Source of the DNA: a virus
Taxonomy: Duplodnaviria; Heunggongvirae; Uroviricota; Caudoviricetes
Reading direction: 5' to 3' (one strand)
Virus record (IMG/VR): IMGVR_UViG_2802429234_000005
Coordinates: 1 to 52,974 of that record
Length of the DNA: 52,974 bases
The stretch's first letter is position 1. Every line of letters starts with the position of its first letter. Below, piece by piece: positions 22,101-28,100 of this stretch. Position numbers: made by a program.

Positions 22101-25100
22101 ATGCGTGACCTGACGCGCGGGCAGGCGCTGGAAATACTCGAGGCGGATTACTGGTACGGCCCACGTTTTGACCAAGTGGCAAATTTGTCCCCGGATATTG
22201 CCGCAGAGCTGTGCGACACAGGCGTCAACATGGGGCCAACCGTGGCGTCAAAAATGTTTCAACGCTGGCTGAACGTTTTCAACCTGCGCGGGAAACTGTA
22301 TCCGGATATGGATGCAGACGGACGTATCGGCCCACGAACTATTAATGCGTTACGGGCATATCTGAAAAATCGTGGCAGGGATGGCGAACGGGTAATGCTG
22401 ACCGCACTGAACTGTACGCAGGGTGACCGTTACCTGGAGCTGGCAGAGAAACGGGAGGCTAACGAGTCGTTTGTATATGGCTGGATTAAAGAGCGCGTAT
22501 CAGGAATCAATTGTTGATATTTATACTTTAGTTGGAAATTACAAAATTAAATAAAAAATTTGCGTAATAGCTGAAATTATAATCTCAGGATAAATTATAT
22601 ATGTCTTATGTTTTTGATTAATTCTATTTATTGATTTGCATCAATTATCTTTTTTGCAGATGCGTTAATGTCATTGTACATAGTTCAGAGCGCACAATAA
22701 GTATCATGAATAGAATTGTTTTTTGGTTTGTCACCTTGGTTTTCATATCTTCTACGTCTTATGCTAATGATTTTTATAGAGCAGACTCCAGATCACCAGA
22801 TGAAGTGAGACGTTCTGGTGGGTTAATACCCCGAGGACAAGATGAAGCGTATGAACGTGGTACGCCAATCAATATTAATTTATATGATCACGCCCGAGGA
22901 ACTGTAACAGGGAATACCAGATATAATGATGGTTATGTATCTACAACAACGACATTAAGACAGGCTCATTTGATCGGGCAAAATATGCTTGGGAGCTTTA
23001 ACGAGTATTATATTTATGTCATTGCACCAGCGCCTAATTTATTTGATGTGAACGGCATACTCGGTACATACAGCCCATACCCAAGTGAAAATGAGTATGC
23101 AGCATTAGGTGGTGTTCCATTATCACAAATAATTGGATGGTATAGAGTAACTTTTGGTGCGATAGAGGGGGGGATGCACAGAAACAGAAATTATCGAAGA
23201 GATTTATTTCGTGGATTATCTGTTGCACCGAATGAAGATGGGTATCATCTTGCGGGATTCCCTGATGAATTCCCAGCCTGGAGAGAGTACCCTTGGATAG
23301 AGTTTGCGCCAGATCAATGCCATCAAAATAATAAAACTAATAGTTTTTTAACCTGTGATTTTATCACTAATGAACTATCGCAAGCTGATTTATTAAAATT
23401 TAAGAAGCTCATAAAACGCAAATCCACTTTGTTGACTTTGCAAAGTATTGATGATTTTCTGGTAAAGAATGGAGATAAAGATGAACTTTAAGGCATTGAT
23501 TAAAATTTTTGTTTTTATGATAAGTTTGGTATCTATCCAAACATTTGCAGGTGTTAGCCAGGAGTTTAGAACTAACTGTGGAGGAACCACAGCCAGAATT
23601 GTAGAGGGAGTCAAATTGACTCAATATTTTGCTGACGCAAATGTTAATAGGAAAGGTATATATGTTGTCAGTTCAACTGGCGGTGTTTGGATTATTCCTG
23701 GGGCGCAAAACTATCCGGACAATTATGTCGCTGATGAAATGAGGAAAATTGCAATGGCTGCTATACTTTCAGATATGAAAGTGAATTTATGCGCAAGCGA
23801 AGCATATAGTCCGAATCATATATGGGCTATAGAATTAGATGCGGAATAATTAAGCTGTTTTTTGTTTTATTGCCCCAGAGTGGGGCATTTTTATTTCTAT
23901 GAGCTTATGAAGTGTTGATTGTGTGAATGTTATTATTGAAGGGGACGAATATAAGCGGATATATAGCATTGAAAATATTAATGTTGTAACCACACATCAG
24001 CATTATAACAGCTCTTTAGTGAGGGGCTGTTATAATGCCATGGTTCACCAACAGCACCCGCCGCGCACCCAGCGCACTGGCTGTTGGCGAGCTTTTTTAT
24101 TCATCAAGCGAGGCTGTATGAGCGAGAAATTGAAGATCGTCTATCGCCCGTTACAAGAACTGTCTCCGTATGCACACAATGCCAGGACACACAGCCCTGA
24201 GCAGGTGGCACAACTGGTAGAAAGCATTAAGCAATTCGGCTGGACTAATCCGGTGCTGATTGATGAAAAGGGCGAAATTATTGCGGGTCACGGTCGCGTT
24301 ATGGCGGCTGAAGTGCTCAAAATGGATTCCGTTCCGGTCATTGTTCTGTCTGGTCTGACGGATTACCAAAAAAAGGCGTATCGCCTGGCAGATAATCGCT
24401 TGCCACTGAACGCTGGCTGGGATGAAGAACTGTTACGGATGGAGCTGTCGGAGTTAATCAATGCTGATTTTGATGTCTCCCTGACAGGCTTCAGCCCGAC
24501 AGAAATTGATGAGCTGTTGACGGATGTTTTGCCAGGTACAGGAAATGAGGATGAGCCGTATACGACGAAAATTGATACGCCTGTTTATGAGCCATCGGGC
24601 GGTAAACCGGATATCAGTGAACTGTACGACGATACGAAAACTCAGGAGCTGATCAACCGGATACGTTCGGCGCCCCTTGCTCCTGATATTGAGAAATTCC
24701 TCCTGTGTGCGGCAGAACGTCACACGGTGTTTAATTTCAGCAGAATTGCGGACTATTACGCTCACGCCCCCGCTGAAATTCAGTGTCTTTTCGAGGAGTC
24801 GGCGCTGGTGATCATTGATTATCAGCAGGCTATTGAAAATGGATTTGTCCGGATGACGCAGCGTATGGTGGAGATCATGCATGGCGGGGAGGAGGATGAA
24901 TGTGCGTGATGATTTTTGCGCCTTTATTCTGACTCACGGGCGACCGGACAAAGTTCTGACTTACCGGACGTTGCGTCGTGCTGGCTATACCGGGAAAATT
25001 TTTATCATTGTCGATGATGAAGACAAGACCTGGCATCAGTACGTAGCTGAATTTGGTGAACAGGTGCTGGTGTTTTCCAAAGCCGATATCGCCAGTCGTT

Positions 25101-28100
25101 TTGACGAAGCCGATAATCTCGGTGACCGCCGTTCAATTTTTTACGCCCGTAATGCCTGTTTCGACCTGGCAAAAATGGTCGGGTGTAAATACTTCATTCA
25201 GCTCGATGATGATTATCACGAGTTCCAGTTTCGGGTGGATCGCAACTATGACCAGGCCTATTTTCCGATAAGGAAACTGGATGCGATCCTTTCTGAAATG
25301 CTGGCGTATTACGAATCAATACCCGCGCTTTCCATCGCTATGTCGCAGGGCGGGGATTTTCTTGGTGACAATGGCGCTCATGCTTCATGGGTGAAACGTA
25401 AGGCAATGAACAGCTTTATCTGTTCGGTTGACCGACCGTTCTCATTCATGGGACGCATTAACGAGGATGTGAATACGTACACGAATCTCGGTCGCCGTGG
25501 AGAATTGTTTATGACGATCGGTGCTGTCCAGTTAGGGCAGAAACAGACGCAGAAAAACAGTGGCGGAATGACCGAGCTGTATCTGGATTCCGGAACCTAC
25601 GTTAAAAGTTTTTACTCCGTCATGTATGCACCGTCGTGCGTAAAAATCTCACTGATGGGCGCCAGCCATAAACGCATTCACCACCAGGTCACCTGGAACA
25701 ACGCTGCAGTAAAAATTCTTCACGAAAAATACAGGAAGAAGACACCCTGCATATCAATGGGGGTGACAAATGATTCCGTATTCGAAAGTCGAGTCTCTGG
25801 CAGCGTGCCGGATGACTGCACAACAAATCGCTGACGTTCTGGATGTTGATCTGAATCGACTGAAAGAAAATCGGGAAGCAATGACAAATTTTTATGCGTC
25901 CATCCGTAAGGGCAGAGCGAAAGGTGAAGCCGAGTTACGGGCGGCATTGTTTAAGCTTGCCAGAAAAGGGGATGCCTTTGCTCTGCGCGAACTACTCAGG
26001 GTGGATAAAAATCAGGACTAACTGATGAGCAGACCGGACTGGGGGGCGTTGCAGCAGGAGTATATTGCTGAATACACCCGCTCCGGTATATCTCCGGTGG
26101 CATGGTGTGAAGCAAGGGGACTGAATTACGCAACAGCCCGTCGTTACATCAAAAAACCTCCGAAAAATGCGCAGGCAGAAGTGCGCAAAACTGCGCAAAA
26201 AGGTGCGCAAAAGAAAACTGCGCAAAAGCGAACCGGCAAAACGGGGAAGGAAAAATCCAGAGTGGTTGTTTCTCCCGTTGCAGGAAATGATCAGGAAATT
26301 TTATTCAATCCCGATGAATTCGGCATCTCAGAGCAGCAGACGAAATTTGCGATGCTGGTTGCACAGGGGAGAAAACTCGTTGAGGCATATCGCCTGGCAG
26401 GATACGAGTCAGAGGGGAATGCGGCCTACGTAACTGCCAGCCAGCTCCTAAGAAATCCTAAGGTTTATCGGGCTATTTCATGGTTCCGCAATCAGTACCA
26501 GAAACGCTATACCGCAGACCTGGATTTACTGGTGAGTCAGTTGATGGCCATTGTCCAGGCCGACCCCAATCAGCTTGCACAATTTCGCCGTGTTAACTGC
26601 CGTTATTGCTGGGGCGAGAATCATCTCTACCAGTGGCGCGATATAGCAGAATTCGACAAGGCAGCGGCGCAGGCTTCCAGAGATGGCAAACCCGAACCGG
26701 AATATGGAGGCCTTGGCTTTGTTGATAACGCCATACCCAATCCGGACTGCCCGAAGTGCTGCGGTGAGGGAACGGGGCAGCTTTATATGGCTGATACCAC
26801 TCTGCTTGATGGGGATGCACGGCAATTATATGCAGGGGCAAAGCTAGGAAAATTCGGTGTTGAGATCCTGCTGGAGGATAAAGCTGCCGCCCGGCGTGAA
26901 TTGTTGCGTTTGCTTTCTGCTGGCGGGGCTTTATGTGCAGATAAGCGGCTACAGGAACTGGAAATTGAACGGCGCAGAATGGAAAACCAGAAGCTGCGTA
27001 AAGAGATCGAAACGGTGGAAGATAATGAACATCCCCAGCCTGTGGCGATCAATATTAATGTGGTTGATGCAAGAGCAAGGAGTGATGAAGATGATCTCTC
27101 CGACGCTTAATGTGCCTCAGGCGCGATTTCTTTCAATGCCCCATAAATTTAAAGCCTATATTGCTGGTTTTGGCTCGGGTAAAACATGGGTTGGGTGTGG
27201 CGGCATATGCAAAGGGATTTGGGAGCATCCAGGTATAAATCAGGGATATTTTGCGCCAACGTATCCCCAAATTCGCGATATTTTTTACCCTACAGTGGAA
27301 GAAGTTGCTGCTGACTGGGGATTGAACGTAAAAATTAATGAGGGAAATAAAGAGGTTCATTTTTATTACGGACGTCAGTATCGGGGAACCACTATCTGCA
27401 GATCGATGGAGAAGCCGCAAACGATCGTCGGTTTCAAAATTGGTAATGCTCTGGTGGATGAACTGGACATTTTGCCGAAGGAAAAAGCCAGAACAGCGTG
27501 GCGCAAGATAATTGCGCGTATGCGTTATAAGGTTGATGGACTTCGCAACGGTATTGACGTTACAACCACGCCGGAAGGATTCAAATTTGTCTACGAGCAG
27601 TTTGTTAAAGCCGTGCGTGAAAAAACAGAGCTGGCCTCAATGTATGGTCTGGTGCAGGCATCTACTTTCGATAATGAAAAGAACCTGCCAGCAGATTACA
27701 TTCCTTCGCTTCTTGAGTCATACCCTCCAGAGCTGATTAAAGCCTATCTTCGAGGACAGTTTACTAACCTGACAAGTGGTACTGTTTACCATCAGTTTGA
27801 CCGGAAACTGAATAATTGCGAAGAAGTGGAGCAGCCAAGGGAGCCGATTTATATTGGGATGGATTTTAACGTTGGAAAGATGGCGGGGATCGTCCATGTA
27901 CTGCGTTTGGGGCTTCCATGTGCGGTAACTGAAATCATCAATGCCTACGATACGCCGGACATGATCCGCATCATTAAAGAACGCTTCTGGCTGTATGACG
28001 GGAATGATTACCGGAAAGTGAGGGAGATTTATATTTATCCAGATGCTTCAGGAGATTCCAGAAAATCAAGTAACGCAAGTACGACGGATATAGCCCAGCT

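Follow-up and report, generated by a model that had tools for sequence, protein, structure and literature searches.

A ParB-like protein and a TAGT-family glycosyltransferase form a conserved gene pair upstream of phage terminase genes: a candidate DNA glycosylation module

What might a ParB-like protein and a glycosyltransferase, encoded side by side just ahead of the terminase genes, do for a phage? The question is raised by a Rac-type lambdoid prophage of Escherichia coli, with its integration site beside ttcA, which is represented by IMG/VR record IMGVR_UViG_2802429234_000005 (Caudoviricetes); the whole stretch of 52,974 nucleotides (nt) that was analyzed is hereafter called the window. 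The first gene of the pair (24118..24909) encodes a ParB-like protein of 263 amino acids (aa), and the second (24902..25834) a predicted glycosyltransferase of 310 aa; both are on the plus strand, as are all the features described below from the upstream terminator to the large terminase gene. An interpretation made without database searches, hereafter the sequence-only reading, had noted a ParB/Srx-like N-terminal domain in one open reading frame (ORF) and a Rossmann-like start with a DxD-like motif in the other, and had suggested a DNA-modification, anti-defense or defense module. Both ORFs and the motifs that it quoted (THGRPDK, IFIIVDDED and QLDDDY) are present, and comparison with homologs indicates that a GT-A transferase, catalytically intact to judge by its conserved residues, is inherited together with a dedicated partner. 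We put the chances that the two proteins constitute a two-component DNA glycosylation module at about even, and consider below the evidence for this reading alongside its competitors.

The second protein, which had been taken to be uncharacterized, belongs at the family level to Pfam PF20691, TAGT (TET-associated glycosyltransferase), with a score of 124.4 bits against a cut-off of 27.5 (E = 7.5e-36) over residues 15-229 of the 317-aa ORF as originally delimited. The same domain was present in 120 of 120 homologs among the matches listed, and TAGT homologs collected at E values up to 1e-3 fall into 1334 clusters at 50% identity. The protein also matches phrog_842 (E = 5e-100), labeled as beta-glucosyl-HMC-alpha-glucosyltransferase, and one PGAP record calls it 'GREB1-related protein'. 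PF20691 includes the second glucosyltransferase of T6-like phages (the T2/T6 beta-glucosyl-HMC-alpha-glucosyltransferase), the trypanosome base-J glucosyltransferase JGT, phage GT-A enzymes acting on 5-hydroxymethylcytosine (5hmC; Pyle et al. 2024), and GREB1. The signature given for the DNA-acting phage GT-A enzymes, R...DDD...ED (Pyle et al. 2024), can be traced in the present protein: in an alignment of 25 homologs, R14, D102-D103-D104 and E188-D189 (310-aa numbering) are invariant, as are D38/D41 and Y105, with the qualification that E188-D189 is followed by V and not by the Y/F of the described ED[YF] motif. In the AlphaFold2 (AF2) model, a GT-A Rossmann-like fold is confidently predicted for residues 1-150, whereas confidence is low for the C-terminal half; the best Foldseek matches in the PDB are GT-A enzymes such as AvpGT, SunS, SpsA and glycogenin, which bears out the suggestion of a nucleotide-sugar transferase. 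By contrast, the TAGT profile found no sequence relative in the PDB at E values up to 1. The C-terminal region (aa 187-285) is highly conserved (TQxNxGGMT, GTYVKSFY, RIHH) and basic, with an isoelectric point (pI) of 9.6.

The two genes overlap, as the sequence-only reading had it, although the length and start that it adopted for the transferase probably do not hold. An ORF lister places the gene at 24881-25834 (317 aa), but all homologs begin with MRDDF and PGAP calls a protein of 310 aa, so that the start is most likely GTG 24902 and not ATG 24881. An AGGAGG ribosome-binding site (24890..24895) lies 6 nt before this GTG, inside the end of the ParB-like gene, and the overlap with the stop codon of the ParB-like gene shrinks from 29 to 8 nt (GTGCGTGA). 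The position of the AGGAGG and the short overlap suggest translational coupling, and the pair is probably co-translated in the late operon.

Assignment of the first protein to the ParB/Srx superfamily, also anticipated from the sequence, is supported by several matches. ParB_N (PF02195) is hit with E = 2.9e-6 and 27.7 bits, just above the threshold of 26.3; phrog_620 is matched with E = 4.5e-88; the profile of the protein retrieves PDB chains of Noc, Spo0J and ParB (E about 1e-7; 4e-7 to 1e-5); and the top Foldseek matches of the model are Noc, ParB-CDP, KorB, PadC, Srx and SerK. The ORF can formally be extended upstream to GTG 23923, but this extension is not conserved, all homologs beginning near M-x-x-K-L-x-I; it is therefore regarded as an artifact of the ORF rule, given that the homologs start at the ATG. 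Within the nucleotide-binding domain (NBD; aa 1-95, 24118..24402), an alignment to Noc places N21-A-R23 at box I, G57-H58-G59-R60 at box II and D92-N93 at box III, where the reference boxes read Q-P-R, G-E-R-R and E-N-x-x-R, respectively. Arg, Arg and Asn are conserved where the alignment places the phosphate-binding positions, whereas in box II Glu is replaced by His and the first Arg is replaced as well (G-H-G-R).

Downstream of the NBD, the protein departs from partition ParB. An acidic helical hairpin (aa 96-136, 24403..24525) is followed by a linker predicted to be unstructured (aa 137-170, 24526..24627), which contains the near-invariant peptide Y148-T-x-K-I-x-x-P-x-Y157-x-P, and by a C-terminal domain (CTD; aa 171-263, 24628..24906) with the conserved pattern FLxxAAxRHxxF...IAxYY...SALVIID...AIExG. 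The AF2 model comprises a confident NBD (1-95), helices at 103-134, a linker at 137-170 with a pLDDT (predicted local distance difference test) <50, and a helical CTD of low confidence (172-255). No helix-turn-helix family was matched in the Pfam scan, AF2 giving only the helical hairpin and the disordered linker, and the TIGR00180 score (35.5 bits) is below the cut-off of 58.45. The protein is strongly acidic (pI 4.5, net charge -23), and its homologs are acidic wherever they were sampled (pI about 4.5). Full-length copies are named 'ynaK' by PGAP, a name that derives from a truncated remnant: in the Rac prophage of K-12 MG1655 (locus L118, 5378-5981), ynaK comprises only the first 86 codons of the ParB-like gene, at 95% identity, and the glycosyltransferase gene is absent from that remnant. 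The K-12 gene ydaY was considered as a possible remnant of the transferase and rejected, being related to neither gene of the pair.

Are the two genes a unit, or neighbors by chance in one prophage lineage? The sequence-only reading had proposed co-occurrence across prophages as a check: in a scan of one genome per species, an ORF matching the ParB profile lies immediately upstream of the TAGT gene, on the same strand and usually overlapping it, in all 27 of 27 loci. These loci span Enterobacterales, Bacteroidales, Chlorobiota, Desulfovibrionaceae, Clostridia, Verrucomicrobiota, Alphaproteobacteria and others, with transferase identities of 49-58% across phyla. This diversity comes from the one-genome-per-species scan, the scan of viral contigs having yielded almost only near-identical E. 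coli prophages. The same arrangement was found in 3 of 3 unrelated metagenomic phage contigs, and an intact adjacent pair in 77 of 80 IMG/VR loci. Among named phages, the pair corresponds to genes 024 and 025 of Lactobacillus phage phi jlb1, to ORF1 and ORF2 of Lactobacillus phage c5, the first genes after the cos site, and to genes 21 and 22 of the archaeal virus HHTV-2, about 3 kb from terL; it is also present in Nocardia phages. By megablast, the region was detected in 1568 of 5426 complete E. coli genomes (29%), 867 of them with coverage of at least 80%. Both genes are under purifying selection, with a ratio of nonsynonymous to synonymous substitution rates (dN/dS) of about 0.1 for the ParB-like gene and about 0.06 for the TAGT gene (range for both, about 0.06-0.13). 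One of the records with the full pair, NZ_CP026085.1, is labeled E. coli DH5alpha, and E. coli W and LY180 carry it too, unlike K-12 MG1655; the DH5alpha label may be wrong. A metagenomic phage with the pair (L004) additionally has two Glycos_transf_2 genes (15837-16894) just after its capsid gene.

Which part of the ParB-like protein is tied to the transferase? When 32 diverse partners are compared, conservation is highest not in the NBD but in the linker motif Y-[TS]-x-K-[IV]-x-x-P-x-Y and the CTD. Linker and CTD have no relative in Pfam or the PDB beyond chance-level profile matches, all with E values of 0.014 or weaker. Their profile retrieves 3157 proteins; among the best 120, most are separate proteins that measure 125-140 aa and contain no Pfam domain. 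In nine distinct loci with such a separate gene, it lies just upstream of the TAGT gene, with one intervening gene in L125. In L121 (5931-8261) and L123 (5925-8243), the gene for the DnaN beta-clamp directly precedes the stand-alone CTD gene with a 4-nt overlap, followed by TAGT; thus, a true sliding clamp stands where the ParB clamp-fold domain is otherwise found. Family-A DNA polymerase (PolA) is encoded upstream of CTD and TAGT in L106, DnaB downstream of them in L128, and primase and helicase on their flanks in L115, a Vibrio jumbo phage of about 191 kb, whereas in L124 and L126 the downstream gene encodes a terminase. In L125 (1850-4418), the NBD (125 aa) and the CTD (129 aa) are the products of separate adjacent genes, followed by a 317-aa protein, TAGT and a terminase.

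The neighbors and fusions of TAGT also bear on whether sugar is actually transferred. The 317-aa protein encoded between the CTD and TAGT genes in L125 resembles histidine phosphatases and cytidylyltransferases and may be a donor-synthesis enzyme, and in L127 a family-11 glycosyltransferase (fucosyltransferase) is encoded downstream of CTD and TAGT (3648-5225). Elsewhere, TAGT is fused to an S-adenosylmethionine (SAM)-dependent methyltransferase, to Sulfotransfer_2, to an N-terminal P-loop domain (GxxxxGKS, kinase-like) or to a second TAGT (proteins P0251, P0252, P0283, P0274, P0275, P0300, P0317, P0268 and P0265; locus L111, 3581-5275). These associations suggest methylated, sulfated, phosphorylated or extended sugars, and they fit a diversifying glycan of the kind documented on phage DNA (Pyle et al. 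2024). A direct ParB-TAGT fusion, which would have been a Rosetta stone for the pair, was sought and discarded as a candidate, the long TAGT proteins carrying a methyltransferase, a sulfotransferase, a P-loop domain or a second TAGT, but not ParB.

The genes that follow the NBD-bearing form of the pair are usually of one kind but of diverse families. The first two or three downstream ORFs generally encode terminase subunits, with large subunits of at least four mutually unrelated families (Terminase_6N, Terminase_3, TerL_ATPase, GpA and the T7-type nuclease domain) and small subunits matching GP3_package, Terminase_2, Terminase_4 and Sf6; these assignments were taken from Pfam counts, a phmmer search with few TerL seeds having missed several families. 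Upstream, the genes vary and include HNH, lysis, replication and other modification enzymes. Given the diversity of the terminases, the association is with the packaging slot and not with any one terminase. Such a position, which in most loci immediately precedes terS and terL and in c5 is the first after the cos site, would also suit a packaging accessory, in which the ParB-like protein works with TerS on DNA recognition or organization, in line with the loading of ParB-fold proteins at specific DNA sites, and the glycosyltransferase-like protein is structural or regulatory. However, a specific protein-protein partnership is hard to reconcile with four unrelated large-subunit families that differ in packaging strategy; the transferase keeps its catalytic DxD and ED residues without exception; the sugar-tailoring fusions argue for real glycosyl transfer; and the pair is found among replication genes in Vibrio jumbo phages, L121, L123 and L128, and at a distance from terL in HHTV-2. 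Neither does the transferase match any packaging family, nor is the ParB-like protein simply a terminase partner. We thus consider a packaging accessory improbable, and return to DNA glycosylation.

What, then, links the pair to DNA? Phage proteins in which ParB is fused to a DNA methyltransferase, known from 395 phage records, begin with a module that shares up to 54-56% identity with the NBD and hairpin, and the ParB-like protein matches phrog_498 with E = 1.6e-50. Consistently, in PADLOC the NBD matches only the N-terminal part of the Type II methyltransferase model (MTase_II). Such fusions are encoded in the equivalent position ahead of the terminase genes, and because they have the NBD module in common with the pair, the same adaptor module serves enzymes that certainly act on DNA. 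In the variants without the NBD, the genes adjoining CTD and TAGT are those of the replisome (DnaN beta-clamp, PolA, DnaB), a true sliding clamp among them. A functional precedent is available as well: a phage ParB with the architecture of the partner is required for the action of a DNA thymine dioxygenase on double-stranded DNA (O'Toole et al. 2026, PMC13229309).

These observations can be assembled into a scheme for DNA glycosylation, in which the pair would be self-contained and part of late expression, alongside the packaging genes. Its second gene would provide the catalyst, a metal-dependent (DxD) GT-A transferase taking its sugar from a nucleotide-sugar of the host, and the first an obligatory adaptor, whose acidic linker and CTD would bind the transferase, probably at its basic, poorly modeled C-terminal half. 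The ParB/Srx NBD would dimerize in a nucleoside triphosphate (NTP)-dependent manner to give a clamp-like hold, such that the complex would encircle or dwell on DNA, the transferase taking the place of the DNA-binding domain that the partner lacks. In this way, the transferase could be activated or kept on double-stranded phage DNA, much as ParB activates the phage thymine dioxygenases, and would move the sugar to phage DNA at about the stage of packaging. Decorated in this way, the DNA of the phage would resist nucleases or nucleic-acid-targeting defenses of the host.

Several points weigh against this scheme. Being strongly acidic and having no helix-turn-helix, the partner is unlikely to bind DNA alone. 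In the dioxygenase precedent, mutations of the NTP site did not abolish activation by ParB (PMC13229309), so that NTP gating is unproven even there. The two proposed interaction regions, that is, the C-terminal half of the transferase and the linker with CTD of the partner, are both modeled with low confidence. The similarity of the transferase to experimentally proven DNA glycosyltransferases is remote at the sequence level, and its homologs in T4-like Aeromonas phages are only 22-26% identical. In the literature searched, DNA modification is not reported for any Rac-type or lambdoid phage of E. coli. Finally, unmodified DNA bases offer no hydroxyl, whereas the characterized TAGT enzymes use hydroxyls, those of 5-hydroxymethyluracil (5hmU), of glucosyl-5hmC or, for GREB1, of Ser/Thr.

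The last point turns on whether the phage supplies a hydroxylated pyrimidine. Tet_JBP, C5-methyltransferase and thymidylate-synthase-like proteins were sought, and none was found by Pfam in the window among essentially all ORFs of at least 135 aa outside the tail region, in the annotated genes of a related, complete prophage of the Rac type, in the three ORFs flanking the pair on each side at 25 diverse loci, or in the Pfam-annotated metagenomic and NBD-less loci. In the complete 31.8-kb genome of phage c5, no unassigned ORF is longer than about 210 aa, and thus none is long enough for a dioxygenase or hydroxymethylase. With no enzyme that makes hydroxymethyl-pyrimidines among these proteins, the usual acceptors of the TAGT family are not supplied by the phage, which excludes 5hmC or 5hmU of phage origin as the acceptor. 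In the survey of Pyle et al., about 65% of phage glycosyltransferase contigs had neither 5mYOX nor ThyS and were set aside; the ParB-TAGT module belongs to this unexplored fraction. The remark of the sequence-only reading that nothing in the sequence identifies the substrate still stands, and is sharpened by the absence of a pathway to hydroxymethyl-pyrimidines.

Might the pair be a nonfunctional leftover of a TET/JBP-ParB-glycosyltransferase hypermodification cluster that has lost its dioxygenase? Next to phage 5mYOX genes, ParB and glycosyltransferase genes are the most frequent neighbors (27% and 31% of contigs, respectively), and no dioxygenase is present in the window or in the related loci. 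A decaying remnant should, however, not show the dN/dS values reported above for both genes, identities of 49-58% between transferases of different phyla with catalytic residues intact, or adjacency and integrity of the pair in 77 of 80 IMG/VR copies; moreover, all loci examined share the arrangement without a dioxygenase. These conservation data largely exclude a dead remnant, which we find hardly credible.

The lack of a hydroxyl on unmodified DNA is, in contrast, a point in favor of protein as the acceptor. The transferase might O-glycosylate either the Tyr/Thr-rich linker of its own partner or a packaging or virion protein, comparable to GREB1 with the estrogen receptor; GREB1, a TAGT-domain enzyme, O-GlcNAcylates Thr/Ser of protein (PMC7968844). 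A near-invariant peptide, Y-[TS]-x-K-[IV]-x-x-P-x-Y, in the part of the partner predicted to be unstructured could serve as the target, the partner is acidic and without a DNA-binding domain, and the Foldseek matches include the self-glucosylating glycogenin and peptide S-glycosyltransferases. Yet conservation of the peptide fits a docking motif equally well, the terminase and capsid types are unrelated across the loci, such that no single packaging or virion target is conserved, the NBD module of the partner is shared with DNA methyltransferases, and the variants without NBD adjoin genes for beta-clamp, PolA and DnaB. On balance, we regard protein glycosylation as unlikely, and the probability left over by all the readings considered here falls to targets such as RNA or small molecules.

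If DNA is the acceptor nonetheless, the absence of a pyrimidine source has a further implication. We tentatively propose, considering it possible but somewhat doubtful, that the pair installs a hitherto undescribed DNA sugar without any hydroxymethyl-pyrimidine, on a canonical base or at another position, with the enzyme delivered by a ParB-type clamp at packaging or, in the variants without the NBD, by a beta-clamp at replication.

The immediate surroundings of the pair in the window suggest yet another role. The prophage encodes RecET, SieB, replication genes, a Q-like antiterminator, three tRNAs, holin and endolysin, and after the endolysin gene the order is the A and B genes of a type II heat-labile enterotoxin (LT-II), a terminator, the ParB-TAGT pair, and the terminase and head genes. 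The toxin A gene (22631-23491; Enterotoxin_a, E = 2e-119) and B gene (23469-23849; LT-IIB, E = 3e-57) end in an intrinsic-terminator-like hairpin and T-run (TGCCCCAGAGTGGGGCA followed by TTTTTATTT; 23871..23887), which marks the upstream boundary of the module; the location of the pair between this terminator and the small terminase gene (26025..27110), as originally described, is confirmed. Adjoining a genuine moron after a terminator, and present in 29% of complete E. coli genomes, the pair could be lysogenic-conversion or defense cargo of use to the host, which might, for instance, keep out other phages through modification of incoming foreign DNA or of a surface structure. Against this, PADLOC has no model that matches the transferase, and the stretch from the terminator to the ParB start yielded no sigma-70-like promoter. 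Phage c5, without an annotated integrase, and jumbo phages of about 190 kb also have the pair, and the K-12 Rac remnant has lost it. Morons vary, but the pair keeps a fixed position with respect to the terminase from phylum to phylum. Cargo for the host is, in our judgment, very improbable. Of the roles first envisaged, DNA modification thus stands as the leading reading and host defense does not; likewise, the moron of this region is the LT-II toxin genes and not the pair, which is a fixed two-gene unit 5' of the terminases in unrelated phages.

The remaining features of the window can be described briefly. A small ORF of 69 aa from ATG 25812 (25812..26021; 83 aa if read from 25770) overlaps the 3' end of the glycosyltransferase gene; the longer version, 25770-26021, is similar to the central portion of a small terminase subunit (phrog_309, E = 2.5e-22), and the gene for full-length TerS (26025..27110; Terminase_2, phrog_51) comes directly after it. 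The large subunit (Terminase_6N and Terminase_6C) occupies 27085..28392, with an approximate start, is also called by PGAP in a related prophage, and is followed by an ORF with DUF4055 (28395-29801), taken to be the portal. In the related prophage L001, the late region of which differs from that of the window, the gene after terL (24458-25894) bears the PGAP label 'anti-CBASS protein Acb1 family protein'; this would look like a naming problem, should that gene be homologous to the DUF4055 gene of the window. The enterotoxin genes (22631-23849) sit between the lysis genes and the pair, where E. coli K-12 has trkG. In the late region, downstream of tRNA-Thr(TGT) and tRNA-Gly(TCC), ARAGORN calls an 82-nt tRNA-Tyr with anticodon ATA (19849-19930). 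An ATA anticodon seems unusual for tyrosine, so that this may be a miscall or a variant tRNA.

The significance of the pair lies in what it lacks as much as in what it contains. In the literature surveyed, the routes of phage DNA glycosylation start from a hydroxylated pyrimidine, made either before replication by ThyS-like enzymes or after replication by TET/JBP; the module described here has a DNA-type transferase and a ParB adaptor but neither source of the pyrimidine, and yet its conservation is strong and extends from prophages of E. coli to a virus of an archaeon. There are two outcomes: either a new DNA acceptor chemistry exists, or a large share of the 'DNA-type' phage glycosyltransferases act elsewhere. 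If the former holds, roughly a third of E. coli genomes, together with phages across bacteria and archaea, would carry a route to glycosylated DNA consisting of one enzyme and an adaptor, and the linker and CTD would represent a new adaptor that couples DNA-modifying enzymes to sliding clamps. The activation of such enzymes by ParB-fold proteins, a recent finding, would in addition extend to a second enzyme class, and a general clamp-coupling logic is suggested by those phages in which a neighboring beta-clamp gene takes the place of the ParB domain. The pair is present in culturable strains, such as E. coli W, and in small Lactobacillus phages, and hence is directly testable.

How does the pair compare with known systems? 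Among the defense systems modeled in PADLOC, none matches the transferase. The CTP-dependent clamps, namely partition ParB (ParABS), Noc and KorB, have in common with the partner the ParB/Srx fold, and residues of the partner align with the phosphate-binding residues of boxes I-III, but the partner lacks both the helix-turn-helix and the ParA-interaction peptide, is acidic, and has G-H-G-R instead of G-E-R-R in box II; no parA gene was seen nearby, the neighbors being toxin and terminase genes. With the known members of the TAGT family, the transferase shares the Pfam match, the GT-A fold and the R...DDD...ED signature. It differs from them in three respects: its clade is not associated with TET or ThyS, and so departs from the very context after which the family is named; it has an additional conserved basic C-terminal region (phrog_31222; TQxNxGGMT...GTYVKSFY...RIHH); and it always comes with a dedicated partner, none being mentioned for known members in the literature surveyed.

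Further parallels are found among the ParB-associated DNA-modifying enzymes. The fusions of ParB_N with N6_N4_Mtase (phrog_498) have a closely related NBD and hairpin in the same slot upstream of the terminases, but there the enzyme is fused and transfers methyl groups, whereas here the NBD is joined to the linker and CTD and the glycosyltransferase is separate. The pair would work like the ParB-dependent 5mYOX systems (PMC13229309): comparing the AF2 layout with the published description, ParB176, like the partner, consists of an NBD, a short helical segment, an unstructured linker (of roughly 50 aa in ParB176) and a CTD, without a DNA-binding domain, and the ParB genes of these systems likewise adjoin the gene of a post-replicative DNA-modifying enzyme, a candidate one in the present case, and often terminase genes. 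The difference is in the cognate enzyme, a glycosyltransferase in the present case, with no 5mYOX/TET/JBP gene in the window or the related loci examined. The idea that ParB guides DNA-modification enzymes near packaging, as well as the definition of TAGT, is attributed to Iyer et al. 2013 (NAR 41:7635), and a literature search that did not cover that paper found no description of the ParB, TAGT and terminase arrangement. The components of the system are thus known; what is new is their TET-independent pairing, the unannotated adaptor domain, and the alternation of the ParB domain with a neighboring beta-clamp gene.

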